From Marsupella aquatica (taxonomy: Eukaryota; Plantae; Marchantiophyta), in contig OZ316892.1 of the NCBI GenBank assembly GCA_973895155.1, forward strand, positions 12,216,238 to 12,280,237: a stretch of 64,000 bases of DNA. The letters are read 5' to 3'. The first letter of the stretch is position 1. Each line of letters opens with the position of its first letter. Position numbers and translations under genes: made by a program. This document shows positions 9,601-61,816 of this stretch, piece by piece. The notes under the pieces were generated by a model. It was not told where the DNA came from and did no database searches. It saw nothing but the letters and a program-made list of their open reading frames with translations.

Positions 9601-10380
9601 GGTTGTTCGTTCAGGGAGTATGAGTCATTGAAGGCGGCCCATCCCACTGCAGGAACAACTTTTCCAGGTTTCATGGAGTGGATCAGAGTGGCAATTAGAG
9701 AGCATCACGAGACCCACCCAGACATGGATGCAGATGTTTACCTACTGTCTAATGCCCCTAGCCTGAAAGTGAAAACTTACAAACGGATGAGAGCATATGG
9801 GAATCACTTTCGAGTGAAGGATGGTGACAGTGCCTACAGGGTGACGAATGACTGCGGGCTCATCACTGTATTTGAGCAACAGAGCCACAATCACGACAGG
9901 GCCTGGATGGAGATGGGATATGTGGGAGAATTAGTTGACATATGGGCTCTGGACTATGGGGCGGTGTCCAGTCCTGTGATTCTTATGAAAGGTTCATGGG
10001 TGCGGCAGGATTGGCTTGGTAACAGGGCTACCATGAAGAGAGACAACGACGGTTTCTTGCTGGCCAATTTCAGAGGGAAATTGCCCGAATGGTCTGAGCC
10101 ATTTGTGTTTCCTAGTCAGGTGGAGCAAGCTTTCTTCCTGGATGTGGAAGACTCCCCAGGTTGGCGTGTAGTGTGTCATAAACAGGCCAGGCAATGTCGG
10201 ATGGAAGGATCAAACCTTGAGTTTCATTTACACTCTCATAGTGCCTTTGATCGTCGGCGTTCAGACCAAGTGCCTGTAGTTCATGATAGCAGGGACTTCA
10301 TTCCTGTGACAAGGGTAGATGCATTTGCTGAAGGAGGCGAATTCAGAGATGCAGATGCCAACAGTGTGCCTGTGCCATGA
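6650..10380 (+). pseudogene. CACTA TnpD/TNP2-type transposase (transposase-associated Cys/His N-terminus, Transposase_21, DUF4218 and DUF4216-like regions), disrupted
   Basis: Motifs RCPCAICQG...RHIAVHG; IHACPDGHVLF...CPKCGKHRY; HFPLIPRL; RNVRLGLSLDGVNPFG; NYNLPPW; DYPAHG; IDVMHIEKNICES; MKSHDYH; FPPAFFDVMTHLLVH; RWLYPLERYM; EPFVFPSQVEQAFF. In-frame stops at ~6887, 7391 and 7637, and a 1-bp frameshift at ~9186. Introns at ~8475-8596 and ~9499-9614. Confidence 0.92.
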
Positions 10381-10529
10381 GTAATGTGAATTGTTTGCAT
10401 GGACATTAGTGAGGGGAAGGATGTGTAATAAAGTAATTCTGAAGCAACACAGATGTATGGATGGATGCCTGGTGATTGTGGTTGCATTGTGTTATACGGG
10501 GTGATCATAGATGACATGTTTTTGTGGTC

Positions 10530-17579: not shown

Positions 17580-19074
17580 CCCTGAGGCTGCGATGAGGGC
17601 TTTGGTTAGATAGCTTTTCTTTGTTTTGGTGACTTTTTATTTCATTGCTCTTTCTGCCCTTCGGGCTCGCTGTTGGCTTTTGCCTCCCCTTCCCGTGGGT
17701 TTTTGCCAGTTTCATTGAAGGAAAAACAAAAAAACTGACTCCTATACCTAAGGTAGGTCGCCAGGAATAATCTGACTATATTCTCAAATAGATGTAGAGA
17801 AATACAACGATGGGATGACAAAATTTAACAGAGTACACTTTCTTTCAGTTGTTTTAACAGGGCAGTGTGCAAACTGTCTTGGGGGGTTTCATTCTAAGGG
17901 AGGTTTCACATCATGTGCAAAATTTTCAAAGAATAAACACCCTAAAACTTAGAAAAAATTAAGTTATTTGTAATTATTTAAAATCCCTAACTTTATGAAA
18001 GATTATAGGAACAGTTTTCTACCAAATTGAATTAAAAACCCTAACTTATCTATAGGCCATGGGTGGGAAGAAAAGAAATGAGAACCCAGGGCAAACTGCC
18101 CATGAAACGGGTGTCCCATGAAATGCAAACTTCGGCTCTAGCCTAGACCTCCTCCAGCCCATTGGTTACCCTAGACTTTACCTCCTTTTCCTGTAAGTTT
18201 GATTTTTTCCTTCCCCCAAGATGCCGCATAGGGGAATGATTGTTGTGGCATGACACAACAACATGGGTTTCCCTACACTTCTACCTTCAAACCTTGTAAT
18301 TTAGGTTTTTCCTTTCCCCCTAGCTGCCGCCGGGGGGGGGGAATGATTTTTGTGAGACATGATAACAACTACTGCACTGCAGCCTGTTTCTACGAAATAT
18401 CCTTCGATCTGTTTGCACACCGGTACAGTAGTATGCTTCTCAATTTGACTAGAATTCAGGGGAAGCACCCTCCGGCCTCCCATTGTGGAGTCCAGACTTC
18501 AACGCGTTGGGAGACTTCCGTGATTCGACGCACCCACCAAACCTTGAACGATCGCCGCGTTGGCAAACAGCTACCCAGACGAAAGGCTAGGTCCTCAGAC
18601 CGGTGTGTGACAGCAAGGAGGTCGTCCACATTACTTTGTCGACTTCGACCTCTCTACCATTGCTGAAGCAGAAAGACGAGGTTGATGTGCGTGACGGATG
18701 TGTGTGGGTCAAAATTGAGAATCGCTCTCACGGTCAATTCACGGAGGAAGTCGATCAGCGGGTCGAAGAATCCATTTCAGCTCTGCACTGCGGAGAATTT
18801 CATGTATCTGCATCCTTCCTTGGATTACTTCCAATTCAATGAAAAGGATTCGTCTGATTCTCGGGGGCAATTCACCTGGGCAGCAGCTCAAAGTATCAGA
18901 TATATTGGCTTCCTCCGGCTTCTTCGAGTCCAATTACCGGCATATCTCAAGTCCTATATCTTTTGTGCTTACCAACATGTAAATGATTGGGATCCCTACA
19001 ATTGGACAGGACTACGGTAGCACCTTCTTCCTTTCGAAGAGAGTCCACCTTCTACCCTGGTTTTTTCTGGCGTG

Positions 19075-20537
19075 ATGATAATAACAGAGGTGAACTCCTG
19101 CCTAGACCTGGTGCTTAAAGCTTCCAAGTTCGCTAACCAGCTCCAAGATGGTTGGTACAAAGGTTCCGCAGACGTTGATTCGTTCAAAGCCCAAGTCTCG
19201 ATACTTCGTCAGAAGCATGATCAGTGGAGCGCTCAGCTACGGAGACATGGGGTTTCGGAGGACGAACGACTTTTGCGGGCAGTGCAGGCAGCCGTTGAGG
19301 TTCTGGACGAGCAAGAGCAATACGTTAACAAACTCCAGAGAAATCCTCTCTTGCGATTGAGGAGAAAGGCATTCCCAGGCCAGCTTATTTATGTTTTGAG
19401 AAATGTGTCCGACATCGTGGACGCTGGGCCTCAGCTGCTGACCACACGGGTTGATACGTTTGATGTGTTGGAGAGAATCGTAGCCCAGACTCCGTCTCCA
19501 TTGCCTTTTATTCCGGATCCCAATTACGTCCCGATTACAAACTCTGTTTTGGAGATACGAACTGCGTTGGAGGATGAACAAGGCCCTCGTGTAGTGACGG
19601 TGTTTGGAGGGCCAGGACTGGGAAAGAGTAGTGTGGTGAAATATTTAGCACTCCAGTACGAAGAGGAGAGAAAGCAAGGCTTAACACAACCCCAGCGCAA
19701 GGCACTCAGTTTTCCAGATGGAGTGTATTATTTGTTTTGCGGAAAGGATGCTCAAGACAGAGTGAAGCAGTTGGAGGTAGAGGTGGTTGAGTGTCTGGGC
19801 TTTGGACCCGGTTCAAGTTCAGCTCCACCGAATGACCAGACGGGTAACGGAATGCAGGAAGGCGCCTATATTCAGCTACCGTCACATCAAATGAAGCTTA
19901 GATCACGCTTAGCTGAGCAGTACTTGCTCATTGTGCTGGATGATCTATGGGAGCGGAAGGCATTGCAACAACTGTTGCAAATGGTTCCTGCGAAGGGAGT
20001 ACGATATCTCGTAACATCCCAGATGAAAGAAATTTGGGGTCCGGCAGCAAAAATCCAGATGAGATATCCGACTGTTGCAGAAGCTAGGCAAATCATGTCT
20101 AATTATACAGACGGACTTCCGACGAAGGGAGAATTTCCTCACAACATTCAGGTACAACTTCAAGTCGTGCTACTGTCATTTTCTGTCAGAGTTCAGGGAA
20201 CTGCGTGTACATGTCTTTCTTTTACTCGAATTACTATTGTCATTTTCTGTCGGACTTCAGTAAACTGCCTGTAGATGTCTTTCTTTTACTTGAATTACTA
20301 TTAGCAGCCTTTGCGTCGTTGGTTGCTGCCATCCGTTAAAATTGTACAAGCACTGAGATCTGAAACAGTATTAGTAACTATTATCGATTAAGCCTTAGTT
20401 TACTGATTTCGAGCATTTTCCATTCCCTGTAGACTGTGACTGATGCAATCATAAAGAACGTAGGTTACCTTCCACTATCTTTGGCTGACGTTGGCATAAG
20501 CGTCAACAGCAGCAGAGCAACTGACGTCAAAGCATAG
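19075..20537 (+). CDS. Truncated NLR-like gene, copy 1: helical N-terminal domain + NB-ARC ending just after the GLPL motif (~393 aa; exons 19075-20151, 20433-20537)
   Basis: P-loop GGPGLGKS, Walker B LLIVLDDLW, RNBS-B RYLVTSQ and GLPL-like GYLPLSL. Phase-0 GT-AG intron. Homology to copy 2 stops at ~20535, where TAG occurs at the junction with CACTA-derived sequence. Confidence 0.8.
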
Positions 20538-22547
20538 AGCCACTTGGACGTCTGCAATGTTGTGAACTTGCTCCTTTCCTCACACTGTGACCGATGTTGC
20601 AAGGCACAACAGTCCTATCAATCCCCACAGAATGTGGAATCTTTCCGTTGCAGTTGAGATCCTATGCCTGATGACATGATCAAGAATGAGTAGCTACAAT
20701 GTCCAGTCTCTCTTGACAGGGTGACATAGCAGCAATACATACATTGGATCAAAGCACGAGTTGGAGAAAAGCAATGAGAGATAAAAATGGACTTTCGCTC
20801 ACCCATGTGCTGGATGGAAGAATGCAGCTACGAGGGCCGGTCTCCAGCTACAGCTCCTTGATGGCAAACCGCAAGCTCTTCCCGGTTCTTCAACCAAAAA
20901 CTGACCCGAAACACACTCTTGCAATGTCCTGAGTTAGTCGCAACAACTCCAATGTAGGTTGCAGCTGCCAATTCATTCCCTCCGCCCTCCTTGCCAATGC
21001 CAACTCCCAATAGCAATGAGGCTTGTTCAGCTGACCTCCTTCGTAGGAGCTCCCAACTCCCAAAGGAAAACTGTCACTACTCACAGCTAAAAAACGGTCC
21101 CTGGACCTTGTCGCTGCCAATGTGCGTCGTGCGCTCAGTTCTCCTGCCCACCAAGAACTTCAACTATAACTTCAACTCCAATGCCCAAGAAGATTGATGA
21201 ACTCCTTAGTCAAAGACGCAACTGGAAGGGTATGCACGCACTTACAGTTCACTAAGTCGGGAGTTTTGCTACTGCTGCGGAAGGCACTGCACAAGCTTTA
21301 CTAATGCGGGACCTGTGTGGGAGGCGTAAAGACTTAGGGTGAAGTCTACTGCAACTATCCTTCTCTTCCAAGCATATTGTGAGCTCAAACAACGTCGCGG
21401 GATTCCTGAGGTGAAGAGTGCAAGCTGCGACCAGTCTCAGGAGCAGCTCCTCAATCGTCCCGGGCATTGGAGCTGACTCCCTCCTTCCGCAGCAGTAGTG
21501 ATCACCTCCCTTGGCGCAACTACAAATTAATGCGCTCTACTTGCAGCCCAAGGACTCAAATGTGTCCAGCATGCAGCGATGGAAGGTTGGCAATGGGAGA
21601 AGTTCCATACGGGACCCACACCACCACAATGAGCTCGTAGTTTTACGAGGGAAAGTGAAGGAAATGCGCACCCTAGCCAGCCGCAAGGATGCACTTCCGC
21701 CTTGGTGCGATCTGCACCTTCTCCCGTCTCCCGATCGAACGAAGCTCAGACATGTGTGACTAAACGGGACGTGCGACTAAACGGGACGCGGGAACGGAAA
21801 AGTTTCACCTGATGGTGGCGATCAACTCCATCCAATGGTGTGTGTCCCCCGATTAACCCCCTCCCCCTTGAGATCGATATAACCCCCACACCCATGTCAT
21901 ATAACCCCCCTAAACCCCCTTTAGGTGTCTTGCTACAACCCCCCTAAAACCCCCTTTAGGTGTCTTGCTACAACCCCCCTAAAACCCCCTTTAGGTGTCT
22001 TGCTACAACCCCCCCTAAACTCTGGCAGGAAGGGTTACATGCATGTGGATGAGTTAGCTAGGCCTAAACTGCACTTCATGTAACACAAAACCCCCAAAAA
22101 AGCCTCCCTAGCAAACCCTTATGCCCCTTGCATATAGTTCAGTCAATGGCTATGTAAAGCGTAATCCCATGGCTCAGAATGTGTATGGGATCGGGTAAAT
22201 ATCCTTTAACCAGGCATATGGCACTACATTATTTTAAAAAGTGTTCAATGGCCACAATGAAAATGAATGGACAAGTCAATTTTGTTGACTAAATTGGACT
22301 TGGCTTACTATTGGCCATTGTCTTATGTTGACTAAGTATGACTATGTAGTCAGACCTGAATGACTCATTCAATAGAGCAAGATTTTTAAAAAGTTCAATT
22401 GTCTTAAGTAGTCATATATACATGACTACTGATGACTATCAAGTCTTGTGGCGTCTCAAAAATAAGACTGATGTTCAAAGGTTGCACTTGCGTGGTCACC
22501 CCAGTCACAAGTGGTCTGGTCATGAAATGCCCCGGTTTCTACTAGTG
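20538..22547 (+). mobile_element. 5'-truncated non-autonomous CACTA element, family A (second copy)
   Basis: Ends in the same 20-bp TIR as 4720-4739. C-rich repeats at 21850-22020 include three copies of an about 35-bp unit (AAACCCCCTTTAGGTGTCTTGCTACAACCCCCCT). GAC/GTC-rich subterminal motifs at 22260-22520. The left boundary is inferred from loss of homology between the NLR copies. Confidence 0.7.
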
Positions 22548-22621
22548 TCTAGAACTTCCCGCTGAAAATTCCATATGGTAACATTTAGTCCAGTCCCCAA
22601 GACAAGAGTCAAGAGAGAGTT

Positions 22622-22919
22622 TGTTAGGTATTGCTCTTAAGTCTTGTGACTCTTGAGTTAACCACAATTAGGCTAACTCAGGTTAGGACTTAACTAAGGT
22701 TAGCGGTAGTGTTGTTGTGTATAAATTCGGGGCTGGTGCCAGTCCTTGGTGGATCTTCAGCTCATTGTTGGAGTGGAGCAAGAGAGAAGTAAAGGTCTCT
22801 TGCTTTCCCGTGGACGTAGCCTCGATTAGACGTGAGGTGAACCACGTACTCGTTATGTCGACTACTTTGTATGGTGTTCACATGTGCATGGTGTCTCGGG
22901 ATAAGGATTATCCCTAACA
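22622..22919 (+). mobile_element. Isolated copia-type LTR
   Basis: TGTTAGG...CTAACA termini, TATA-like TATAAAT at ~22719, and a core shared with the LTR at 17237-17579. No matching 5-bp TSD seen. Confidence 0.7.
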
Positions 22920-24375
22920 GTCAGCATGTGTAAGACTTTTTGAGAGATAAGAAGGTCAACCACCGGCAGTTTTGACCTTCACATGATGTCAAAACCCCTG
23001 TTTCAAAATCCTTGAAAGAAACCATCTCCTTATGCTCAGGGCTCAAAGACTTGTCTTGACATCTTATGTGTAACACACAGTCATGGGGCTATCAACCAGT
23101 ATAATATCCAATCCCGCCTTAAAAGGAGTCTTTGTCCCTTAAGAAATTAACTTTTGGAGACTTTTGGAAACTTTTGGAGGGAATCCATGACACCCTTCAA
23201 AATTATTTGTCAGTTTCTTGGGCTGCGCAAATATCAAAAAATTGGGCAGCTATAAACTTAAGCAAATAGATGAAATAAGTGTCGAACTGCTGAGCAGCCG
23301 AACCCCGAACTGCTTGAGATCATCCAGAAGTACTCTGGCAACTTTCAAGGAACGAGAGATGGCCTGCCAGCTTTACCTAAGTCACCACCTACCACAAATC
23401 AATCAGAGGAGGACAATGCACAGAGGAGGACAATGCACAGGAGGAGAGTCAGAGCTCAGATGACGAGTGACCCCTGAAACGGTGAGAAGGCCAGACAATT
23501 GCTGCGCGCAAACCTAGCCTCAAGACAGTTTTAAGACAGAGCGCTCCATTGCTCTATTGACAACGCACGAGATCATTGTAGGGAAGTAGGCCCATGAACA
23601 TTTACTGTCAGTACGTGTCCAACTCTAGAAGTAAAGCCTGATTCATTTTCAGATTTTGATTTCACATGCTCTTGTGTGGTATCTAGTTGACTGAAATTGA
23701 AACCTCGTAACTTTCCTTCGCCCGTACACAGTGTGAATCCTAAAATAAAAAATAGTCCACACAAATTAGTGTGACTCTAATTTTGGTATCACACTAACTT
23801 GTCACTCATACTAGTTAAGGTGGACAATGTACTTAGATCCGATATCGGTTCTTCAGATCCTAAGGCCGGCAGCTGAGAGAAAGGAGAAGTTCTGTGCAGA
23901 TTATGTTGTATGCTTTGGCATCTACACCATCGGACAGTGTACCTAGATCCGATATCGGTACTCTCGATCGTAAGGCCGGCCGGCACGAAGGAGACTCGTT
24001 CTCACGGTCCATGCAGGCTGGAAGGCGATCAAGGAGTCGAGATATCCTTTTCAGCTCTGCGTTGCGGAAAATTTCACATTTGCATCCTTCAGTGAATTCC
24101 CTCCAATCCAAGCTGATCTCCGATCTACCATTTTCAAACGATTTGCTGATTCTCGGGTGCAATTCACTTTGGGCAGAAGCTGAAAGTGTCATATATATTT
24201 GCATCCTCCAGCTTGTTCTCTCCAAAAATCGACTTTGATTATTGGCATTTCTCTAGTCCTATATCTTCTGTGTTTCCAAAACTGTAAATGACTGGGGTCT
24301 CGACCAATGGACAGTACTACGGTAGCACCTTCATCCCTTAGAGAATCCACCTTTTACCCTGGTTTTTTCTAGCAG

Positions 24376-27300
24376 ATGATAATAACAGAGGTGAACTCCT
24401 GCGTAGACCTGGTGCTAAAAGCTTCCAGGTTTGCTAACCAGCTCCAAGATGGTTGGTACAAAGGTTCCGCAGAGGTGGATTCGTTCAAAGCCCAAGTCTC
24501 GACACTTCGTCAGAAGCATGATCAGTGGAGCGCTCAGCTACGAAGACATGGCATTTCGGAAGACGAACGGCTCTTGCGGGCAGTGCAGGCAGCCTTTGAG
24601 ATTCTGGACGAGCAAGAGCAATACGTGAGGAGACTCCAGAAAAGTCCTTTCTTGCGATGGAGGAGAAAGGCATTCCCAGGCCAGCTTACCTATGTCTTGA
24701 AAAATGTGTCCGACATCGTGGACGCTGGGCCTCAGCTTCTGAGCGCAAGGGTTGATACGTTCGATGTGATGGAAAGAATCGTAGCCCAGACTCCGTCTCC
24801 ATTGCCTTTCATTCCGGATCCCAATTACGTCCCGATTACAAACTCTGTTCTGGAGATACGAAATGCCTTGGAGGATGAACAGGGCCCTCGTGTAGTGACT
24901 GTGTTTGGAGGGCCAGGACTGGGAAAGAGTAGTGTGGTGAAATATTTAGTACTCCAGTACGAAAAGGAGAGAAAAGAAGGCTTAAAACAACCCCAGCTCA
25001 AGCCACTCACTTTTCTAGATGGAGCCTATTATTTGTTTTGCGGAAAGAACGCCCAAGAAAAGTGAAGGAGTTGGAGCTAGAGCTGGTCGAGTGTCTAGGC
25101 TTTGGACCGGGTTCAAGTTCAGCTCCACCGAAGGACCAGATGTTTAACGGAATGCAGGAAGGAGCCTGTCCTCAAAGACCGTCACATTATATGAAGCTTA
25201 GATCACGCTTAGCGGAGCAAAACTTGCTCATTGTGCTGGATGATCTATGGGAGCGGAAGGCATTGCAACACCTGTTGCAAATGGCTCCTGCAAAGGGAGT
25301 ACGATATCTGGTAACCTCCCAGATGAAAGAAATCTGGGGTCCGGCAGAAAAAATCCAGATGAGATATCCGACAGTTACAGAAGCTAGGCAAATCATGTCT
25401 AATTATACAAATGGACTTCCCATGAAGGGAAAATTTCCTCACAACATTCAGGTAAAACTTCAGATCTTGCCACTGTAGTTTTCTCTCTGAAGTTCAGGGA
25501 ACTGTGTTTGGATTGTTCCTTTCACTTGAATTAATGTCAGCAGCTCTTGCGTCGTTCACTTAGTTGCTACTATCCATTGGAAATGTCCAAGCACTGACAT
25601 CGTAAACCGTATCAGTACCTATTATCTCTGAAAGCTTTACTGATTTCGAGAATTTTCCATTGCCTGTAGAGGGTGACTGATGCCGTCATCGAAACCGTAG
25701 GTTACCTTCCACTTTCTTTGGCTGATGTTGGCATCAGCATCAACAGTAGCAGAGCGACTGATGCAAGGCATTGGCAAGCGATCAATGATAATTTAAATCA
25801 TGTTCATCTTCACGAGGACGACTTCCAGGTCAGTCCGGTTATGTATGAGAAATCTTACGATCTCACTGTCGGGGCCTCTATGATGCTCATGGTGGAGTCT
25901 TTGACTCCACGGCCAGATGCAAGGCGACTCCTCTTCTTGATTGCATTATTAGGGGACGGCCATTTGCCAGAAACCCTGGTGAGGTACTTTTACAAATGGA
26001 TTCAATCGGCTCAATCCACAGCTTCCCTTAGGCTGAACTACGAGAACCAGGAGAAGTACCTGGCAGACAGGTCATTGGTTGATTTGCACATGCAAGGAAA
26101 TGAGTCAACGTGGGAGAGGATGCCCTCCATGTGGGGGCAAAGAACGGTGGCTGGTCATCGCTTGAGGATGCGCTTCATTCGGGAGAAGAAATCTCTCGAT
26201 GTCCGGTCTATCGCTGCTCAAATATTAGAAAGCAGTAATCAAGGTGGAACTGAAGTTATTGAGAAAGGGGATGCAGAGGCAACGCTTGTTACGATATTGA
26301 GTGCAAGTTACTTCCAAGAACCTTTCACGGATGTCGTAGCAGACACTCTCGAAAATCATCGTCGAATCATCCATGATGGCGCCATTCCACCGAATCTCAG
26401 TACGGGCATCCATCCACATCATGATCTTGTGAAGAGGACAAGATACCAAATCGAACGTCTAGTCTGGCTTATCAATGTCGATCATGGAGATCCTGCTTGG
26501 AAGCAGAAAGCACATGGGTGTGCCAAAAAGGTAAGGATGCTAATCATATGTACTCTGCCAAAAATGTTCGCCTTCAAATACCATAGAGTACAGATCAGGT
26601 GCAAAAATGAGCAGTGATAAGAGATGCAATAATAATGTCCAGTTCCTTCGTTATAAGTCTTCAGCGCGCGTCTCTGAGGACACTGACTGGGTGCTTAGCC
26701 CACGTGAGAACAAGATGTAGGATAGAAGGGAAAAGAAATTCTTAGAAATGATGGAATTGCCAAGACTGCAATCCTATCAAGGTTCGATATAGCTCACACA
26801 ACCAGAATCTAACTATTAAGGGCATCACATTAATTGTACTGAAGTAAGCTGCAGATCCGTCTTTCATCTGGTTTCTCCCAATTCCAGCATAAATTGTGTA
26901 GTAACGACATTTACATTTCTCATGTGGAGCTAGATTATTATCAAGCTAGCTTGTCAAGGGATATTGGACGACTACAGTATGGCAGGCTTGCTTCAACTCC
27001 CTCAAACAACCTCAGTTGCATGTACAGTATTCGAGGGCTACATTCGGGCTTTCGGTTCCTATGATGGAAATGAAACAGTCTCAAGCAAACATGGCGAGAC
27101 AATGAATACTCAGCTCACTCTCTTGCATGATGATGGTGTATCAACCACAAGACGAGTTCCTGTAATCAGGGCCTTCGGGATAGTTCTTGACTACGAGAGC
27201 AAAGATACAATCCTCAGCGTGGCTGCTAAGTATATGGAACTGCTGGGCACGGATTTCAGTGAATCTACTCTCCAGATTGCTGTAGCGCGAAACCTGTATC

Positions 27301-29352: not shown

Positions 29353-31149
29353 ATTTATTTCCAGTGACATTAGCATGGTTGATAGTGCTGCTGTCCTTAC
29401 TTCATGATCAGAAGGTGCTTGTCCAAAGTTCATGATCTAGCACAAATTCTAGCATAAGGCGTTCAGATGCGTGTTCTGATATACATATATAGGGCAACCA
29501 GACTCGGTGGAATTGCTGTCCGATTGAATGGCTTACTGTCGTAAACTGTGTGAATTTCATTGGGTCAAGTAAAAAAAAATTGGAATAAAAAACAAATCAA
29601 ACCACTTAAACCACCCAGTATCCTGCCCAATATGCTTATGTGTCAGATTCTCATATTATGTCTTAATACTAAGTGAAGACAAGGGCACTGCCCTCACTGC
29701 TCAGGGTGAATTTAACAGTCCTGAGCTTGTGAGGGCTCTAGCAGAAGAATATTTGGCCAACAGCTGGGTGGTCTGGCAAAGGGCTGGGATAATATGTGAG
29801 TCAGTACAGCCTACCTTGATTAAGTGCAGACATGGGGGGAGACACCTCAGCCTGCAATTATCCATGTTATGCAGTTTGTCATAAGCTCTTGGGATATCAT
29901 TATTATTTTATGCACTTCTTCATAGGTGCATGTGAAATGATTTCTTCCTATGTGTTGTCAGGTCATACACATAGGACTCCTGATACCCCGAACCCTCATA
30001 CTGCATAATTCAACTGGACTACTGCATGGAAAACTGTATGTTTGTGTCTGTTACACTTAAATATCAGTAAATGCTTCTAGCATATGCGTTGCAGTGACTG
30101 ATAAATGCATGGGCACTCTTATAGATAAAAGTGCATTTATGTATATGTTGTTTTGTGATGTTGACCTGCACTTACAAATGATGCACTTTTTGGTGCATTT
30201 ACAAAGGAAAGTGCTGAAATATTCACCACTTTGCTAGAAAATTTATTAATCTCTCACCAACCAAAACCTGGTTACAAGTACTTCTACTTTTTCGTCATTT
30301 TTCCATACAGGCAAAGGTTTGGACTCCTTTTTTGGCTAGCAAACTGGCCTACGATCTGGAGCCCTACGAATGCACTAGAACCTTTCACTCTGAGAATACC
30401 TATGGGTTTTGTTTTTTGTTTTTTGTTTTTTGAAAGAAAAATCTATTACACAGTAAGGGCCAAACAAAGTACAATGACCAGCAAACAAAAGAAGTCCAAA
30501 GAGATGAAACCCAAAAGAAGCAAGTCCAACCCTGAAATAAAAATACTACCACGGCACTGGAGCGATGGACCAACATCGAAAGTAAATGTACCTATAGTTT
30601 CATAGAGAATAAACAGAGGTATTATACGCACATCTTTATTTATTTCTAGGCTAGCGATCTCGCAGACGAAGAGGGGGTGTCTGATTGGGAGACTCCATAA
30701 ATTGATATGGGATTAGTGGACGGCTGTGACTCGCAAACAATCCTTCCTTGCTGGCAAAATCCTTTGTTTGCTCGTATCTTACTAACCCGCTCGCTAGCAT
30801 TCCTTCCTCACTCGCGAAAATTCTTGTTTGAATGCATTTTAATAACCCACATCCTGAGTTGAACGGATCACTACCTTAGTCGCCAAAATCAATGCTCCGT
30901 AGTTCATAAATGCTACAGTGTGCAGCACAGACTCTCAGCCGAATACCTTCTGTAGGAAATTGTAGCTCTGACATGCAGATCTACTTTCGCTCGCACACAC
31001 TCTACTACCTTCGAGGGCTGCGGATTCTCATAGACTGCGATTGAATTGGCTGGAACTGAAATGGCGAACTAAAATCCGAGTCAAATTGTGACACTGAGAT
31101 TGAAGAGAGAGAAGAGAGGAAAACGAGAGAAGGCAGGGCAGGGGCAGCC

Positions 31150-34100
31150 ATGGCGAGTGACAAGGGAGGTTCACTCCGGGAGTACGGAGACAGTAGGGGA
31201 ATTAAGTTCTTTCTGGTAATTCCCATCTCATTCAGTTTCTTCCGTGGCGTTCTGACCCCGAGTTTTTAGCTTTCCTGAGTCGAATTGACGTTGGGGCTAC
31301 TACCAGAGTGACATGAGCTGCTCTAGGACTCTGGTCAGGATTCACTTGGATATACAAGACCACCAGCTCCAGATTTGGTGGTCAAACCAATTCCTCCTTC
31401 TACACTAACTTGTAGCACTCATTTAGCTAGGGAGTATGTCGAGTCTCAAGGACGGAAATTGTGAGCTGTAGGGGATGCTGAGGTGTTGATGATGTTGATG
31501 TTGAAAGTGAATGGGCCGTTTTCTGTTGTCTGGATGGTGCTGACAAACAGGTCAGTTTTGTGGATCTACTCGGTGTGGTCCGGTCCAAGCTGGTGCCGAT
31601 TGCAGCTATCGAACAAATGCAGGCGGGTGGGGCCGGTTTCGCTGGATATGCTGCCCACTTCGACATGTCACCTGCTGATCCAGACCTGGTGAGATTTTAG
31701 CAGACCAGCTGTAGATACGTTCAGTTCTTTCGTCTTCTCCAAATATTTTATATTCATTTCTTTTCTCATCCTTTCTGAAGACTTAGGAGTCATTCGTCCG
31801 TTGATTCTCTTAAATTTTCCAATTTCATTCATCCTTCAAAATTCATTCAATCCCAAGAGAGCAAGGTAGCTTTGAGTACTCTGTAAACTACGGAACTGGG
31901 TTAAATTGAAGATCGTCTGGCCCTCTCTTTCATCGTTTCCCTGAAGCCCTGCTACTTACAGCAGTAGTGCCTGTGCTTTTATTGAAATTTCTTCCCTTTT
32001 GGAAATTGCAGTTTGCATTCCCGGATGCATCCTGCGTGATTCAGCTGCCCTGGAAACAGGAAGTTGCGTGGGTTCCAAGCGACCTGTATATGCATGGCAA
32101 GTTGGTGAAGCAAGCCCCTCGTCAGGTGCTCAAGGACCAAGTAAGCTTGCCTAATTTGAAGCCTGCTTAAATGAACCCTCTCAGTTCCCACTCATGAACG
32201 TCATACAAATGAGAGTGCATATTTGAGTTTGCACCTTCTGAGGGTGTATTGGAGGGTTCTCGGGAGGGTTTACATCTTGCAAACTTATTCTCTAAAAAAG
32301 TGCTGAGTTATTTGGGGCCCAATGAGAGCCAAACGATTCACCTGAAGAAATTCAGAGATCTATATATGACTAATCGATAAGGTGACCAATCTTTTTCCTC
32401 TGACTAGACACATCACAAATTGACAACCGCTTTAAAAACTTCATCTTCAGATTTCAAAGGGTTTGAAAAAGGGCTACCGGATGAAAACTGGTGTGGAATG
32501 TGAATTCTTCTTACTGTCTGGCGACGCCGTCAATGTTTCTGACGCCAAGGACTCTGCTGCTAAACCATGCTACGACCAGGTTTGTATTTGCAACGTTTGT
32601 CCCACCAGACTTGTAGCTCAGCTCTCTCGTAGTTCAACACAACTAGATTAAACATTTTTGTAATCGTGGCTCCATTTCCTGCATCTCTCAATAAAAAAAA
32701 GCAATGTTGCCTCTCTTGACGCAAGGAATTACTTAACAAGGAGCCTTCCATTTTCAGGGTTCATTAATGAGGCGGTTTGATATAATTTCAGAGTTGTTTC
32801 AATACATGGAAGATCTTGGGTGGAAACCGTACCAAGCTGATCATGAGGTATAGCTACTCACCACTTCAATATCCGTGACTGGAACATCCTGAGACTTTGC
32901 ACAATGGATACCTTTTAACGAAATGTGATCAAGTTGTGATGGTATATCTGCCTCCCATGGGAAGCTGAAAATTTCTTCTAATCCGATTGTTCTTGTTTTA
33001 TATTGGCAAGGATGGGAATGGACAGTTTGAGATGAATTGGGAATATGATGACTGTCTCAAAACTGCTGACAAGCATGCCTTCTTCAAGTTCATGGTGAAG
33101 TCCATTGCAGAGAAACATGGTAAAGTTCATTCCTGGCTTCTGGCAGCAAACGCATTGACAGCTGAAGATTTGTTTGGCTACAGCACATACTGAAGATTCT
33201 CTTGCTGCAATGGTGCAGGATTTAGAGCCACATTTATGCCAAAACCGTTTTTAAACAAAACAGGTAATGGCGCACATTGTCATGTTTCAATATGGGACGA
33301 ATATGGAGAAAGGAACTTATTTCATGACCAAAGTGGAGAATTGGTAACCTTCAACCTTTCCAGTCTTTTTCAGCAAGACTGCCGTAAGCAATTTGTCCCC
33401 GCGTCAGATTTCTAGCAATTCAGAATATATGATATCTTACAGGCATATAGTAGCCTCAATTGGGTCCTCCTCTTCGTGGTGACCACTTCCGTACAGCTGA
33501 TGGATTGGATTTTTCCCATACTGGCCTGATTTGTGCAGGGATTGTCCTTTTTAGGCTATGCATTTCTCGGGGGTCTCTTGGCCAATGCAAAGGTATGACT
33601 GTAGAGACTTGATGCATTTGATGGGTCCACCATCAGAAATTTTGCAACGGTTGATCTTACCATTACAAAGCATGAAATCTGTCTGAAACTCTTAAACGAG
33701 AGGGTACTGAAGTTGATATTCTGATTGGCATATCTGTCTTCATTCATTCCTTCAATTGTAGGATGACAGTAAATTACCCTGCTTGGGCGTTTAGCTGAGT
33801 TTCTTGGTCAAGCCTCGTTGCAGACCGCTGTTTAAGTCAAGTACTATTCACGAAGAAATGATTTTTTTTGCTGCAGGCGTTATGTGGAATCTTGAATCCA
33901 ACGGTGAATAGTTACAAGCGTATTGATGGAACCACCACTGCTTCTGGCTCATCTTGGGCTCCTACATCTGTGTCGTACTCCGGCAACAATCGAACTCACA
34001 TGTTCCGGTCAGTCTTTTCTTCAAATTAATTACCTTACTGAGATTGAAATGTCGGCAGGTCTAGTATGAGGTCTGATCGGAATGAATGGTTTTGATGTCT

Positions 34101-35220
34101 GAGAAATGACGTGCACTCTCGTGACAATCCATAACAATCTTGTAAATATAAACGGATCAGCCTTTATTTGTTGCATCAATCGGTCTACAGTATACTCAAA
34201 ATAAGATTGTAGAAGTCTTGAGTCAATCAGTACCGTTGTATTATTAATGCTAATATCCAGCTGCCTCTTCTGTAACTAATGTCGACTAGGGCAGTATACC
34301 AGATGAAGGCAGGTTTGAGCTAAGGCTTCCAGACGGCGCTGCCAACCCGTATTTGATGCAGGCAGCCATTTTGGGTGAGTTTTTTGTCGGCAATAGACTT
34401 GTGGGGATATAGTCTTTCCTCCCAGCGTATCGTTTAAAAACCACTGAACATGTCCATGGTGCTTTTAACAGCTAGCGGACTGCACGGAATTGAGAACAAA
34501 CTGGACCCGGGACCTAGGGCTGACTGGAATGGACATCTTCCTCCACCTGCAGGGCAGGTACTTACGATTCTGATATTATTCTGACTTCGTGGCTGCTTCA
34601 TGATGCACTCGCAAGGGCCTTATCCGAATATCAGAATTTCAACTTTTGAGGTATCACGGCACGTGGTTATGGAATCAGAAGGGGCGCTCTCTAGGTACCT
34701 ACGGCTCGTGTGCACGCATTTTGATACTGATCTTGATGTTGGTAATTTTTCCAGAAGCTTGAATTTCTTCCCAACAACCTGCTGGACGCATTACAACAGC
34801 TCTCTGCATCAGAACAATTGAGAGAAGTAAGATACCAGTTTTGCTTTTGTTACTTTTTCTACATTCTAGATATGAAAGAATGGTATCCTTGAGGAGAAAT
34901 CTTTAGGTCATCCGCATCTACGTAAGCTAGGATTGGGGAATGTAGGTACATCAATAAGATCATCTACCCAGCATAAATCAATCGGTCTACAGTATACTCA
35001 AAATAGGATTGTAGAATTCTTGATTCAATGAGTACCGTTGTATTTTCATGCTAATATCCAGCTGCACGCAGTCGTATTTCTGATCAAGACTCTGCTTGCT
35101 TTTCTGCAGGAGTTGGGAGTGGAGCTGATTGAAAGCTATATAAAGTTACAAATGGAGCAGTGGAAATCTTACACAAGCCATCTTAGTCGGTGGGAGCTGG
35201 ATAACACTCTGGACTGCTGA
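31150..35220 (+). CDS. Bacterial-type GlnT/GmaS-like glutamate--amine ligase (glutamine synthetase superfamily), 13 exons, ~439 aa
   Basis: Hand-spliced exons: 31150-31215, 31551-31688, 32012-32140, 32451-32579, 32758-32847, 33011-33119, 33219-33343, 33539-33592, 33877-34007, 34295-34374, 34472-34557, 34755-34826, 35110-35220. All introns are GT-AG and the frame is continuous. Product: MASDKGG...GIKFFLVSFVDLLGVVRSKLVP...GAGFAGYA...IQLPWKQEVAW...MKTGVECEFF...KPCYDQ...YQADHEDGNGQFEMNW...FFKFMVKSIAEKHGFRATFMPKPF...TGNGAHCH...NPTVNSYKRI...GNNRTH...RFELRLPDGAANPY...LPNNLLDAL...TLDC. Confidence 0.93.
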
Positions 35221-35509
35221 TGCAATAGCTTTAGCACGAATAATTCTTTTGGAGTACAGTGAAGCCTGAGGAGGGCTTTGCACACCGATATTGATGTGTC
35301 CTGATGGACTGGTTCGTTTTTGGATCAGCCAGGACCACTTCTTTGTGAATATTACTGGTGTCCTGTGAGTAATTTGTGATTGGAAACGTTTGACTGTTGG
35401 TGGATCACAATCGTTGCATTACTTAAACTGAGCAACCGCAGCCTCGCTCTGTACGGGAAATAGCTCTCAGATTGACGAACCGCCGACTCATTTTGTTCAA
35501 TACAGAGTG

Positions 35510-36100
35510 AAGTCAATAAAACTCAGTAGATTGTCTTGTGCTTTCTAGCGGACTTCTCCAGTAGTTCTGCAATGGATTACTTGCAGTAGTAGCACTATAT
35601 AACAAATTGGGACAGGTAATATACCTTACCAAATTGGTAGAATTCAGTGATACACTATTGTCCCAAACAAGGAAAGCAGTTCTGTATCTCTTAGCGTGCC
35701 CGTAAGAATCCGTTTTCTTGTACAGTGGACTGGAAACACACACGAAGGAAAAATGACCGGACTGATCCAGATATCCCATCTGGTCAAGACGATAGTGAGA
35801 ACCCTTGAGTGCACGAAATTCGATCCTATTCGTTGGCAGGAAAGGCTACTCAAGATATATCTTGCAAGTAATGGAATTTCCCGGAGTAGCTCTTTAGACT
35901 CGAATAAATTAGAGAGTTTCTCAAGAGCGTGTGGAATGAGTCCTAGTTTCAATGCCTGCTCACTTCTCATGCATGTTGCACATGTACTTGCGACAATTCT
36001 TAATAAACCTGAGATTGGTAGACTTTGCAGCTACGCCGAGGATGGCATCCGTTCTCTCGTAATGAAGGAGAACCTAAAGAGCTCACACCAAAAATAAATC
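35510..36100 (-). pseudogene. Degenerate fragment of a third NLR-like paralog (ARM region)
   Basis: Minus-strand peptides HYERTDAILGVAAK and ALKLGLIPHALEKLSNLF...LARYILSSLS match copy 2 DYESKDTILSVAAK and ALKVAAIPGALEKLFNFF...LAGYILVDLS in the same order. Interrupted by deletions and frameshifts. Confidence 0.65.
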
Positions 36101-36114
36101 CGACTTAAACAAAG

Positions 36115-36250
36115 CGCATCGTACTTCAATACGGGATAACGCACTCACGAGAGGGCTTTATCTACACATGTGGATGCATCCTCGCATCGTACTTCAATAC
36201 GGGATAACGTACTCACGAGAGGGCTTTATCTACACATGTGGATGCATCCT
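36115..36250. repeat. Near-perfect tandem duplication of ~68 bp
   Basis: CGCATCGTACTTCAATACGGGATAACG(C/T)ACTCACGAGAGGGCTTTATCTACACATGTGGATGCATCCT occurs twice. Confidence 0.9.
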
Positions 36251-38010: not shown

Positions 38011-41000
38011 TCAATGACTGCTTGAGGCTTCTTCCTCTTGCTCTTCCATCAAAGGACCCAAGGAAGGTTGCCGTGAAGGAGGGTTGGCCGACGACCCCAG
38101 ATTCTTGCCGTAGAGCGTCTGATATACTCTATAAGTACGCTTTGTAAGCACCAAGCTCAAGAGAAGTCCCACAACGCATATCGCTGTCATTATCATGAAA
38201 GTGACTTGAAAGCAGACAGGCCCATTGCAGACTAGTCCATCGTGACTACTAACCATTCTGACGTGAGCTCCAGCTGATCCGTTTTTCTGCTTTGCTGCTT
38301 CTCGGTCATAGAGTGGACCAGCAATGAGACCAGAGAATATCAGTGAGCCAGTCGGCACTGCTATTGTGAGAACATTGTATAATGTCCCGAAGTTTTTCAG
38401 CCCAAATAACTCGGAGGCAGTAGCAGGAAAAACCGACCAATGACAACCGTATCCAAAACCCACCAGGAGTGACCCAATATACATAGACCCGGGCCAGCTC
38501 ATGGCAAATTCTAAATGGCCGAATGCCATCAAACCCTGTGCAATAGCGAACAGAATGGCCCTTGGTGCGGCATAATCCCTGCAGAGGTAACAAGAAATTC
38601 TTCTATCAGTAATCTCATCACATGACATGACCATTGAATGGCATTACAAACAAGTTCACCTTCTGCATGCAGAAGGTGATCTCAGGGTAGGCTGCACCAA
38701 TCCTTCTCCAAGTACAGTACAAGAATAGAGGTCTAGAGTCACCAATCAAATAAACGTGTACTCATGAAAACATAATGTGCCCAAAGCAGAAAAATCTTAA
38801 TAGAAACTAATGTCGCTATAAGTGGTATATATCTATGATTTGACATAAGTATCCACAATTTGATCATGTCTTTGCTGGCACGATGCGTTGTGCAGTGCGA
38901 CCAAAGTGAACTCAAGGGCCTCTAGTGCTTTGCTGATTGACAGACCTATACTAATCCTTCCCACAGGGCTCTAATGATTTACATTTAGCACGCACTTATC
39001 TCATGTGTGCAGGAAAAGCAAGGAAATCAATATTCAGCGCAAGCACTACAGGTTCCTCGTATGACAATAGGCCAAAGACACTAGAATGCCAAGAAAAGGA
39101 AGTAGTCATTCGTGTTCGAGGTTGCAATTATTATTATGCTTATTATTATATTTCGCTGAACAGTGATGCCCCGAAAACATTTTATAGCTGTCTACATAGC
39201 ATATTAGTTCACCCCCGAGGACTCCTGACACCATCGCTGTATTTTCGTTTTAATATGTGATGTCGTCTGGCATACCATAATGACGCCGTAGTTTGTAATA
39301 GCAATTCTCACAGCCGCCTCTCTACGAATGCACCAAGCATAGCTATGCAAATCGAAAGTACGACGGACGGAAGGCCAATCCTTCTTCGAAAGCGACTTGC
39401 CTGAACTGGAGTAGTTTTTCGATTAATCATTGCAATTTATTTCTACAAGTAGTTGCATAACCTTTACGAAAAGCACGAAAACTGGAAATCTTCGATATTG
39501 AAAACGTTCAGGATACAGAACTTGACTTCCTAAAAGGATCAGAAAACTCGGATTAAGAAGTTTCTACAGCTCAAATCGCGACAGAAAGCTAAGTTCACGT
39601 GGCTTAAAGTGACGAATATATTATCCACCCGAAACCAAATTCCTTCACTGGCCCAGCATCATTTAAAAAACAATTTTTACCAAAATATCCCATCTAGGAC
39701 ACTGCAGTAGAGCTGACTACGATACAGGAAAAGTATTCGAAACTACAGGATGGATTATTTACCTGACAATAATCTCTGAAGCCCATCCTGCTCCAATCCG
39801 ACCCAGGAAGCTCCAAATGCTGATGAGAGAGACAAATATGTGCGCGCTAGCAAAACCCTGGGATTCGCCAATTTGACCCAGGTTGTCAATGGCCGTCAAT
39901 CCTGATCCCGCGCCACATACGAGGATGGCAAACAAGAGCCAGAAGTCAGCTTTTACAAGAGCCTGCGACAACGTGAAGTCTTCTCCTCGACGTGGGCCCT
40001 TCCTGCGCTTCAGCTTCACAGCTCCCTCTGCTACTGCCTTCGTCAAACTGGAACGCATGCGCGAGAGTCTCTGCCGGAGGACTCTTTCGGGCACGTTTGG
40101 CCTCATCTTTTCATCCTCCATTTCGCTGAAGTCTGCGTAATCTGCTGCAGGCGGGAATGTCTCGGATCCCTTTTTCTCAACGTCAACTTTCACCTCACGC
40201 CCGCTCTCGTTACTAGCAGACATTTTTGGCGGTTCGGGAAGCAGGGGGGCTGATTCTTCATCCCTGGGAGCGTCATACACTACTAAACGATAAAACGGAA
40301 TACTCAGAGGTAAAAGTAGCAACAACACCAGTCCGAAGGCCAATCCCTTTAGAACTGTAGAACTCACGTCCACGATATCAAGGAGAACCATAGTGCCCAT
40401 CAAGTATGCGGCAATAACAAGGCACAGGCTGTAGATGAAACTGAAGTTTGAGGCATCTGTTTTCAGATTGCTTTGAGCATAGGGAATGGGACGGACGATG
40501 AACAATCCAAACATTGTAACCATGAATGGCCCGACCGCAACCAAGAATATGAAAGATGCCTTGTCCGGAGCATAAAAAGAAGTATAAAGTTGAGTAAATA
40601 TTGCACCACTGAGACCCGTGAACCCTTTCAATATGCCCACAATTCCTCCCCGATTCTGAGGGAAGTTGCCCACACAGGCGACCAGTACACCTGTGTTGAG
40701 GAATGTCTCGCCATTTGTCGCCAAACAAATGAGTATGCACACCTGGAATAAGAGCAACGAACTACGGTAAGAAGTCACCCTCAAGAGGTAAAGTTCAGAC
40801 CTTGTTCACACACTATCGCCACTACCTGTACTCCCAACTATTTGATCTGCTTCGTTGAGTCTACAAATGAGCAATCAAAGCCTCTAACCCTACGAGTGGG
40901 AAAGGTTCCGAATTTGATCTGGCAATCCAAGAATAAACTGAAGCCCACATCCTTAGGCGTGAGAATTAGTCCAGATTAACGGATAGCAGGGAGCCCGCCG

Positions 41001-42046
41001 CGTAACGTTACGGCAATCAGATTCGTAACATGAGCCAATTGAAACCCCTGTTCCCCAACTGTGGTACGTGATTTTCCAGGACATCAGCAAATTTTTGACG
41101 AAGGATTGTCCTAATACAGAACTCCCTCTGAGATCGAAAAGTCTTCTCACAAGACAATGAGGTCACTCGGCACCTGAGATCCTAAAGAATCACAACGGCA
41201 TACACAATCCTCGAAAAATTCCGCCAGATACGTGGACAATCGTTACCGGACACCACCACCCTATAGACATGGACAGCGATCCAGCAGGAAGCACGGCTAA
41301 AGAGTGTAAACAATTGATATGCTTTACATAATTGGAGGAAATCCTTGACAATTCAGTAAGCCCGGGAAAAATAATACTTAGCAAAGCTATGCATAATGAC
41401 AACCCAGGAGCACTTTCCTTGCTGGGATAACGGAAGGGCTGTCAGTAAATGGGAAAACGAGGATTCAGCTTCCTTGGTGCTTGGTAGAAGCGGGCACATC
41501 TCACGTACAATTCTATTGAGAACTGGACAATAGTAGAACGGGCAACATTTCGCACTCAGATAGCCTGCCTCGCCTGGAATTTAGAAATAGCTGAAAAGGC
41601 AATGAACAAGACCCTGGGAAATTCGAATTGGGAGTACGGCAGCTGTCTTCAACGACGAACGAGGGATGCCTGAAAACTGAGAACTGACAAGTGAAAGTTG
41701 AGAAGAGACAAATACTCACAAACCAAAAGGGAACCGCGGGAGCTTGCCCAGTAACAATGAGCCAAAGCCACCCATATCCAAGCAGGTTCATAAGAGCCCC
41801 GACAACGAAAAGGGCCCATATCGGCAGCAGATCACAAAGAGTTCCAGCCAGCAGCCCCACACTGTCGCCAATGTCCTTGGCGACTCCCAAGACGCTGATC
41901 TGTTTCTGACTGTAGCCGAGGACACTCTTAATTACGGGCGAGTAGCTCCCAAATGCGTAGCCCACTCCGTCGCACGCTTGGATGCAGATTGCAACCCCCA
42001 ATACAAGCCATTTGTTCGTCGACAAATCCCGCCATAATGGTCTCAT
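38011..42046 (-). CDS. Nodulin-like major facilitator superfamily transporter (NFD4-like); exons 42046-41720, 40742-39763, 38578-38011
   Basis: NKWLVLGVAICIQACDGVGYAFGSYSPVIKSVLGYSQKQ...LGVAKDIGDSVG; NFPQNRGGIVGILKGFTGLSGAI; GPRRGEDFTLSQALVKADFWLLF; IDNLGQIGES; ASELFGLKNFG; CNGPVCF. GT-AG introns are in phase. Confidence 0.93.
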
Positions 42047-43809
42047 TTTGGCAGCCAGCCGCACCAATCGCACGAACGATTTGTGTGATTCGGAGAATCG
42101 TCGTTTCTGCTCCCGCAGTTCTCTTCTCACCGACCAGCCGATTCGTCGGCCCGACAATTTCTCCCGCCGATCAAAGCGAAAGACCGACGGACCACTGCAT
42201 CCCTTCGTCAAGCCGAGCACATTCCAGCAAGTCGTGATGAAACAACGCTCCTGACCGAGAAATCGCTTTGTCAACTTACCACTGTTGCGGTACTCCCCAC
42301 ACGCATCAGCAAAGCCGCCCTCGGCAGGCGCACTCTCGTCTCAACCTACGAACGGAAGAGTACGAATCCGGCAGATGGGAACGCATACTGTCTTCCTTGT
42401 TTGCCTTGCAAATTTCATACAAATTGCTTTACTAGGATACAGAGGACGAGTGGCTCACAGAGGGAGACGAAACCGTTAAGACATGCCTCTTCTAAGCTAC
42501 AGTGGCCATCAAAGCAAACCTTTAGACGTTCCGATTCCGAGACTATCTTTTGTTAAACTGTATAGTCCCCTAAACCATCGAGAGTGCTTTTGTATAACCT
42601 CCCCACCTACTGTAGGTCAAGAAACGACACAGCGACAAATATAATAAATTGTTCTTCGTCCCCTGGTTCGCCCACTTAGGGCCGCTCATTTAACTATCTG
42701 CACCCCTGGTAGGGTCATCGTATTCCATGTTCCAAAGATCATTGTCTACTGATGGGTGGCTCACCTTTCGGTTTCAGGGCGAAACTAAATTCTTCTCCAT
42801 TCGGAGATGTTTAGGTAGGATACTCTCTATGCAATCGAAGCTTCGGACCAAAGCTCAGGAGCACATTACTCATTACCTCCACCGATCCCTCAGTCATGCA
42901 GAGAGCGAGGAGCTGTTAATTGGCCCCTTGCGACAGTAAGTTTGCTTCTCCCGCTGGTATGGATTAATCATTACTGAGCTCGGTGACGAGACGAATAGAC
43001 GATGGCTACGATACCGTAGTGTTGAACGTTATTGATCACGTTGACCACTGATTGTGGATCTCCATAGACCTCCTCAGCTCTAGTGTGTTCCCAGTGCTCT
43101 AAAAAGCTGCCCCTCCTTCAGAGCGTTTTTAGTGGTCAGCGCACTTTTAGCTCCCACATCTCCTGCCTCCAATTAAAGGGCACAGTAGTTTCTACATTCT
43201 GGGCCTGCCTGTCCGCTGATGCCTTGAGGCCGCTTTCCTGCCACTGTTCTTCGCAGCCCTCCCTGGGATGCTACCCCGAACTGACGAAGTGCGACCTCCG
43301 GTTGCACTGTTGCAGTGTGTGCCTGGCTTAGATCTTCATTGTTTTACAATACACCCCAACCGAATCGATTGACCAATCCCGACCCACGGGCCCCTCCTCC
43401 ATCAATGGAAGCGCACCGGCACGCCAGCGATGGCGTCCATTACGGAGCAGAACCACAGAACTGCAGATCTGCAGAACAGTACGAGAGGTTGCGTCGATGA
43501 TTGCAGCAACAGAGTGATGTTGTACTTGTGGGTACGTCGGTAAGAGATGCAATGAGAGTAGCTGACACGGAGCCCCGCTGGACGGACGCGAATTGCTTGC
43601 GACGAGCGAGCGATGAGCGATGGAGCGATGAGCGATGGAGCTAACGCTTTGCGACTGCGCACGGGCTGCTTGCCGGCACTTTCCGAACACGATAGCGGTG
43701 GCTTGGAAAGTGAGGGGACCGGCAATACAGCACTCTACACTACTACGAGGGCGTATCGAAGCTTCAAAGTTGCTATGATGGCCATAGCTTTTTCAGCGGG
43801 TAATCACAG

Positions 43810-61700: not shown

Positions 61701-61816
61701 TCCACCCCGCTCATCGCATTCTTCACTCTGCACGACGAAGGGGCAATGTCCGCAGTAGCACCGCATCCCACGAGCGACGCGCTCACCAGAGACGAAGACG
61801 TCGCTGCTGCAAGCAT
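58714..61816 (-). CDS. PAO: Pheophorbide a oxygenase (Rieske monooxygenase, chloroplast), multi-exon
   Basis: Ser/Ala-rich transit peptide; Rieske motif DKCPHRLAPLS|EGRIDENGWLQCSYHGWSF; mononuclear iron site MENVSDPSHIDFAHHK; IWICSFNIPMAPGKTRSIVCSARNFF; PRWYEHWTSNKVYDGD; QHTLKCASC; C-terminus DYVHAKID. First ATG at 61816. Confidence 0.95.

Follow-up and report, generated by a model that had tools for sequence, protein, structure and literature searches.

The window analysed here is a stretch of 64,000 nucleotides (64 kb) of contig OZ316892.1 from Marsupella aquatica (Marchantiophyta). Between positions 31150 and 35220 of its forward strand lies an intron-rich gene whose predicted product is, judged by family profiles and conserved residues, a ligase of the GmaS/GlnT type. 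Splicing its 13 exons by coordinates yields a coding sequence of 1320 nt that specifies 439 amino acids (aa) and ends in a single terminal stop codon; all 12 introns are of the GT..AG type and between 97 and 335 nt long. A first-pass annotation, made from the sequence alone, had read 13 GT-AG exons and an open protein of about 439 aa, which the exact splice reproduces, and all motifs named there, including FAGYA, GSSWAP and the C-terminal TLDC, are present in the protein. The gene is made up as follows; "Rh" marks the equivalent residue of the bacterial enzyme RhGmaS, and GS stands for glutamine synthetase.

31028..31149, +, probable 5′ untranslated region, covered by relatives' spliced contigs starting at 31028 and 31035
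31150..31215, +, exon 1: ATG; aa 1–22 (basis: splicing by coordinates and spliced contigs)
31551..31688, +, exon 2: aa 23–68; K35 (Rh K30′) and the GAGFAGY loop with A53 (Rh A48′; Asp50′ in true GS)
32012..32140, +, exon 3: aa 69–111
32451..32579, +, exon 4: aa 112–154; metal ligands E127 and E129, amine-pocket Y152
32758..32847, +, exon 5: aa 155–184; Y179, Q180, catalytic D182 (Rh D177), E184
33011..33119, +, exon 6: aa 185–220; catalytic E191 (Rh E186), N193, W194, Y196
33219..33343, +, exon 7: aa 221–262; G236, H240, H242, S244
33539..33592, +, exon 8: aa 263–280
33877..34007, +, exon 9: aa 281–323; R295, the GSSWAP flap with W307 (Rh W300; Glu in true GS), R319
34295..34374, +, exon 10: aa 324–350; R324, E332, R334
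34472..34557, +, exon 11: aa 351–379; plant-clade loop DWNGHLPPP
34755..34826, +, exon 12: aa 380–403
35110..35220, +, exon 13: aa 404–439 and TGA; C-terminal WELDNTLDC
35221..35542, +, probable 3′ untranslated region, covered, with a gap, by one X2 contig

The predicted junctions were compared with contigs from X1 and X2, two sequencing runs from related organisms, both presumed to be RNA. In X2 contigs, all 12 introns are skipped at the predicted places; in X1 contigs, 11 are skipped in the joint table and intron 6 in a separate one. At introns 2 and 12, two letters are replaced at the joint in these contigs. None of the predicted joints was seen in contigs of the runs X3 and X5; X3 contains the entire window in identical form and may be the run from which it derives. 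Scanned singly, nine of 11 exon pieces had TIGR03105 as their best match, and they did so in profile order, so that the exon chain is not due to chance. With exon 2 alone as query, the first match was a 439-aa protein of Calypogeia fissa, followed by Selaginella and Ceratodon, and the whole spliced product aligns one to one and without gaps to two C. fissa proteins (89.5% identity), which fits a leafy liverwort as the probable source. A synonymy count, based on 40 listed rows and not a formal selection test, gave 27 coding differences, 14 of them silent; outside exon 1, 14 of 21 are silent.

We then assigned the protein to a family with profile searches. Since the scan of the window product itself was limited to 11 exon pieces, whole-protein scores were taken from its plant-clade orthologs and compared with the cut-offs of TIGR03105 (469.6 bits), of the GlnA model TIGR00653 (429 bits) and of NF045547, the model for PuuA-type γ-glutamylputrescine synthetase (650 bits). 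The Calypogeia ortholog passes TIGR03105 with 615 bits and remains below the cut-off for GlnA (276 bits) and the PuuA-type enzyme (232 bits). The same holds for the other members examined: each of the 17 plant-clade proteins that were scanned exceeds the TIGR03105 cut-off (559–624 bits), while they score 253–294 bits against TIGR00653 and 206–250 bits against NF045547. The GlnII model for type II GS (GSII) gave at most 18.7 bits. The closest matches in the PDB are RhGmaS (7CQL; E 2e-162) and then GmaS of Methylovorus mays (9QUR), ahead of any GS. An AlphaFold monomer model (pLDDT 78.6, with residues 288–306 of the flap poorly modelled) reaches a TM-score of 0.90 to 7CQN, and a look-up in the ESM Atlas gave nothing beyond the family name. 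The protein is a single chain of 439 aa with the GS fold, without the N-terminal amidohydrolase fusion of NodGS, and in trees the plant proteins fall within the GmaS clade and away from GSI. On these grounds, the protein is a GmaS/GlnT-type ligase, as the first-pass annotation had called it; in the profile comparison it had proposed as a check, TIGR03105 was passed and the GlnA and GSII models were failed.

Three long tandem GS proteins among the top matches, P0300 (4424 aa), P0310 (2757 aa) and P0304 (1356 aa), were considered as fusions of GmaS and Mgs and rejected: they contain multiple GS domains and are only 25–33% like the plant protein. Those from Candidatus Auribacterota are giant proteins with six and three catalytic domains according to Pfam; the one from Heterostelium is a triple GS.

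To relate the sequence to the catalytic site, residues were mapped by alignment to RhGmaS 7CQL, and 22 plant and 105 bacterial rows were compared. The part of Wang et al. (PMC7948447) on which all our statements about RhGmaS draw names 21 residues for binding of ATP, glutamate, Mg and amine and for catalysis, and distinguishes GmaS from GS by Ala48′ and Trp300. All 23 residues are kept in the window protein. They are likewise kept in all 22 plant rows, the sole exception being an isoform that skips an exon and has gaps at four of the positions. The amine pocket of RhGmaS (K30′, Y147, Q175, D177, E179, E186, N188) corresponds to K35, Y152, Q180, D182, E184, E191 and N193, and the remaining 14 residues, ligands of ATP, glutamate and Mg, are all conserved. 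A53 in place of GS Asp50′ and W307 in place of the flap Glu are present in 22 of 22 plant rows. The proposal that FAGYA and GSSWAP are altered ammonia-handling motifs is therefore borne out, as Ala53 and Trp307 match the GmaS-defining Ala48′ and Trp300. With 439 aa compared with about 435 in bacteria, the protein carries no transit-peptide extension; because it starts in register with its bacterial homologs, it is probably cytosolic.

The gene is not confined to Marsupella. Named carriers are Calypogeia, Marchantia (two species), Riccia (two), Sphagnum (six), Ceratodon, Physcomitrium, Selaginella and Diphasiastrum, as well as the zygnematophyte alga Spirogloea muscicola, which has three copies; Marchantia (MARPO_0140s0025) and Physcomitrium (LOC112278114) have one listed locus each. 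The proteins P0066, P0070 and P0188 branch with Spirogloea, outside the land-plant rows. In the hornwort gene set of PMC7027989, of which we used part of the supplement, AANG007490 has a transcript and Selaginella D8R0I5 as best match, and is probably the hornwort copy of the plant GmaS-type gene. Table S32 of the same supplement holds a second hornwort gene, AANG011979, with a GS catalytic domain only and no database match. Among the best 120 of 8000 matches of a plant-profile search, 18 plant-clade rows stand on top, the rest are bacterial-type, and no name of a fern, seed plant or chlorophyte appears. The plant clade has a support of 100/99 and 100/100, the land plants of 100/99–100, and mosses and lycophytes form inner clades. 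As a proxy for shared intron positions, we compared breaks in gene models with exon borders: 18 of 29 other plant models start, end or carry an indel at most two residues from an exon border of the window gene. Among them are a Diphasiastrum isoform from which precisely exon 5 is missing and two models of Spirogloea with an insert at aa 280.

For a family common to mosses, liverworts, clubmosses and an alga sister to land plants, a bacterial source that predates plant life on land is likely. The simplest reading is a single gain before the split between alga and land plants, with later loss in ferns and seed plants; the plant lineage likely received the gene from a bacterium a single time, ahead of the separation of land plants and zygnematophytes. 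Being shared with Spirogloea, it is older than the first-pass annotation had proposed.

Beside these genomic copies, two intron-free moss-type sequences, L126 and P0063, lie on short JGI contigs. They fall inside the moss clade, so gmaS-like environmental transcripts can be plant-derived. A GmaS-type protein of 531 aa with an N-terminal extension was found in Paulinella chromatophora (P0302 of EukProt; 527 bits against TIGR03105). It stands outside the plant clade and is possibly a second eukaryotic acquisition.

Besides the GmaS-type gene, the window carries nuclear genes of plant type and a CACTA transposon:

7640-12760, CACTA pieces
19021-25480, two NB-ARC-like genes
38014-42340, nodulin-like MFS transporter gene, 2.8 kb downstream of the GmaS-type gene and on the opposite strand
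50680-51138, TAF1A-like piece
59264-61852, Rieske/PaO-family gene

No paralog of the gene is present within the 64 kb. Downstream of it, at 36115-36250, we noted a 68-bp tandem duplication with 99% identity between the copies. Furthermore, an element of about 90 bp occurs in intron 9 (34175-34264) and in intron 12 (34977-35065). The two copies are 93% alike, the window holds no others, and the element is possibly a small mobile one. An identity of about 62% to bacterial proteins could suggest a contaminant or a chance splice model, yet the 12 introns are spliced in relatives, plant genes surround the locus, and orthologs are carried on chromosome-scale contigs of many plants. We discarded this explanation, the probability of which we regard as negligible: this is a genuine gene, it is spliced, and plant DNA flanks it.

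To trace the source of the plant family, we examined its bacterial relatives and their gene neighbourhoods. In the closest bacterial loci with at least 3.5 kb of upstream sequence, mgsA, mgsB and mgsC are present in 62 of 66, i.e. these are N-methylglutamate operons. Two cyanobacterial clades differ from this arrangement. Clade I (Nodosilinea, Leptolyngbya and a Gloeomargaritaceae bin; loci L081-L124) has as neighbours a class-I glutamine amidotransferase (32 of 44), an Fe-alcohol dehydrogenase (31 of 44) and an aldehyde dehydrogenase (25 of 44), an arrangement that resembles a Puu-type γ-glutamylation route for an amino-alcohol or diamine. At one clade I locus, L111, the TIGR03105 gene follows an ammonium-transporter-like gene. 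Clade II is cyanobacterial and myxobacterial (Thermostichus, Pseudanabaena, Xenococcus, Pleurocapsa; L162, L206-L234, L236, L238, L239, L244). Here, a MetX-like hydrolase (PRK07581; 23 of 29) and a fatty-acid-desaturase-like di-iron gene (22 of 29) adjoin, without mgsABC nearby; together with the TIGR03105 gene they apparently form an undescribed three-gene amine module.

That the plant gene is of bacterial origin is secure. It nests in bacteria, has introns and lies between plant neighbours, three of the features expected of a laterally acquired gene. A fourth, the identity of the donor, is less clear-cut. The top bacterial matches are Alphaproteobacteria with 62–64% identity, but the case for a clearly alphaproteobacterial donor weakened once the cyanobacterial clades entered the trees. 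In the free LG+G4 tree, the plants group weakly with the proteobacterial set (84/41), and in a mixture-model tree they join the same set with a value of 91 in the SH-like approximate likelihood ratio test (SH-aLRT). The 12 commonest sister sets cover 997 of 1000 bootstrap trees, none of them consisting of cyanobacteria alone, and in about 880 of the trees the sister set is made up of proteobacterial or unnamed proteobacteria-like rows. Each of the five rooted trees with clade I likewise keeps the plants apart from it; three of these trees, including the mixture-model tree, were quick searches. A proteobacterial donor by lateral transfer is therefore favoured.

The competing explanation is a cyanobacterial source, be it the ancestor of the plastid or some later associate, or else the ancestor of mitochondria, in place of a free-living proteobacterium. 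Several observations speak for cyanobacteria: mean identity to the plant set is nearly as high for clade II (53–58%) as for the closest proteobacteria (55–60%), with clade I at 46–50%; the loop R-x-D-N-N-x-Y-T-D-P-L-P and the C-terminus of clade II resemble those of the plants; clade II likewise stands without mgsABC; and a Gloeomargaritaceae bin carries a clade I copy. Moreover, approximately unbiased (AU) tests rejected neither a pairing of the plants with clade I (p 0.199, before extra cyanobacteria were added) nor one with clade II (p 0.073), both of which count against the proteobacterial donor. The bootstrap sister sets and the mixture-model tree argue in the opposite direction, the protein is without a targeting peptide, and an organelle origin needs many losses because the matches listed include no name of a red alga, a glaucophyte or a chlorophyte. 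We consider such a source unlikely. Thus, of the old, assimilated bacterial transfer postulated initially, the assimilation stands, with introns, neighbours and plant clade arguing against contamination, whereas the lateral route and the donor are less firm, as the AU tests leave room for cyanobacteria or an organelle.

For the function of the plant enzyme, RhGmaS provides the closest biochemical reference: its Km is 27 µM for methylamine, 58 µM for ethylamine and 8.7 mM for NH4Cl (PMC7948447). By analogy, the plant protein would form a cytosolic 12-mer of two rings, in which Mg-ATP would phosphorylate glutamate to γ-glutamyl phosphate (R319), D182 would deprotonate the amine, and E191 would deprotonate the tetrahedral intermediate and thereby resolve it. 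The Trp flap may serve for gating of the site only. Methylammonium or ethylamine, taken from wet surfaces or made in the cell, would be trapped as a neutral amide that could serve both detoxification and nitrogen storage. That methylamine or ethylamine is the substrate, with N5-methylglutamine or theanine as the detoxification and storage form, has in our estimate somewhat better than an even chance.

A number of observations weigh against this assignment. Relative to bacteria, the plant clade has exchanged Trp for His at position 58 (17 of 22 rows), Phe for Tyr at position 55 (16 of 22) and Asn for Ala at position 181 (15 of 22), and the bacterial flap GATW has become GSSW. Tyr372, invariant in 105 of 105 bacterial rows, is lost in the plants, where the loop DWNGHLPPP carries a WNGH motif; we take this loop to be the counterpart of the GSI tyrosine loop. 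The changes sit in three loops beside the active site (55/58, the GSSW flap and WNGH). No mgsABC or mgd gene lies in the 64-kb window, the only plant sequence in which these genes were sought. Nor does family membership define the amine, since TIGR03105 also spans the cyanobacterial clades without mgsABC and with other neighbours. Finally, RhGmaS itself is broad and uses ammonium at the same kcat (PMC7948447).

These observations leave room for two other functions. With the same origin and chemistry, the enzyme could have shifted to another amine, such as ethanolamine, a diamine or a specialised amine, and produce a plant-specific γ-glutamyl amide. The remodelled loops fixed across the plant clade, its long stem branch (0.16–0.47) and the clade I neighbourhood with its resemblance to γ-glutamylation of an amino-alcohol or diamine would fit such a shift; all seven amine-pocket residues are nevertheless those of RhGmaS, the PuuA-type scores fall far short of the cut-off, and the plants are separate from clade I in the rooted trees. 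We regard a shifted amine as rather unlikely. Alternatively, the protein could act as an additional low-affinity GS at high ammonium, in keeping with the turnover of NH4Cl at full kcat by RhGmaS (Km 8.7 mM; PMC7948447) and with the label glutamine synthetase that UniRef and NCBI give to several plant copies. Against this role stand the replacement of both ammonium residues of GS (by Ala53 and Trp307) and the scores below the GlnA cut-off, and such plants already own GSIIe and GSIIb (according to the part of PMC9310647 used here), which makes it improbable. Use of methylamine or ethylamine thus remains our preferred assignment. The wider scenario, in which bryophytes and lycophytes scavenge these amines into N5-methylglutamine and theanine with a bacterial ligase kept since early streptophytes and lost in ferns and seed plants, is a tentative proposal that we hold possible at somewhat less than even chance. 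Retention since zygnematophytes and the first land plants would amount to more than 450 million years.

In bacteria, gmaS is a marker gene for methylamine use, and an intact, spliced and clade-wide gmaS points to a nitrogen and one-carbon capacity in early land plants. It adds one more type of the GS family to non-seed plants and is a candidate for a gene acquisition that predates life on land. Should the proposed function be true, theanine synthesis would have a candidate gene native to plants other than tea, volatile methylated amines would be drawn directly into moss carpets and Sphagnum peatlands as a sink, and bryophytes and lycophytes would possess an unrecognised route of organic nitrogen. 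For moss and peat metatranscriptomes it follows that gmaS-like transcripts can be of plant origin, as exemplified by L126 and P0063.

Literature searches retrieved no report of a plant GmaS; large surveys of horizontal gene transfer, which may list the gene, lay outside their scope, and it is quite possible, if a little short of an even chance, that the transfer is already tabulated in one of the major surveys. Searches with the gene identifiers of four species found no paper. In the portions covered, the gene was not found in the supplements of PMC12513842, PMC11096116, PMC11906373 (one scan outside the search) and PMC9255765, and in that of PMC7027989 the hornwort gene is present only in an annotation table. 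The plant GS phylogeny of PMC9310647 covers GSII, and its sections used here mention neither GlnT nor methylamine. In databases, the plant copies are named "glutamine synthetase" or "uncharacterized", except for one Ceratodon entry with the automatic name "Type III glutamate--ammonia ligase".

The first-pass annotation had started from the premise that land plants use only GSII and NodGS, which is incomplete. Non-vascular plants own a bacterial GSIIb (PMC9310647, in part), and Physcomitrella has a further CFB-like GS, moss-only and 59–61% like proteins of Runella, Dyadobacter and Meiothermus (Yue et al. 2012, PMC3493653, in part). Both are, like the gene described here, bacterial acquisitions in non-seed plants. 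That CFB-like GS and the gene described here are probably distinct: the former is given as restricted to mosses, whereas the plant GmaS family also occurs in Selaginella and has its nearest relatives in Proteobacteria. A weak scan with the Physcomitrium protein as query gave five loci, none of them Bacteroidota or Deinococcota.

NodGS is GSI-like, and the tea theanine synthetase CsTSI makes the same kind of product as proposed here. With these and with GSIIe and GSIIb the plant protein has the GS superfamily in common, but it belongs to a different family (about 19 bits at most against the GlnII model) and has no amidohydrolase fusion. It shares with clade II of the cyanobacteria and myxobacteria a GmaS-type active site, the absence of mgsABC nearby, a Pro-rich C-terminal loop and phototroph hosts; unlike the plant gene, clade II is adjoined by the MetX-like hydrolase and the desaturase-like gene, and it is not the plants' sister in free trees. 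The closest known system is bacterial GmaS/GlnT (RhGmaS 7CQL, PMC7948447; M. mays 9QUR), with which the plant protein agrees in fold (TM 0.90), in the 21 ligand and catalytic residues, in Ala for Asp50′ and the Trp flap, in length, in the C-terminal TLDC and in passing the family cut-off. In contrast to bacterial GmaS, the plant gene is nuclear, has 12 introns and, within the window, no mgsABC or mgdABCD beside it, and its product carries the loops GYAAH, GSSWAP and DWNGHLP without the invariant Tyr. Taken together, this is a known kind of enzyme in a new kingdom: an old, bacterial-derived GmaS-type family of streptophyte algae, bryophytes and lycophytes with remodelled loops.

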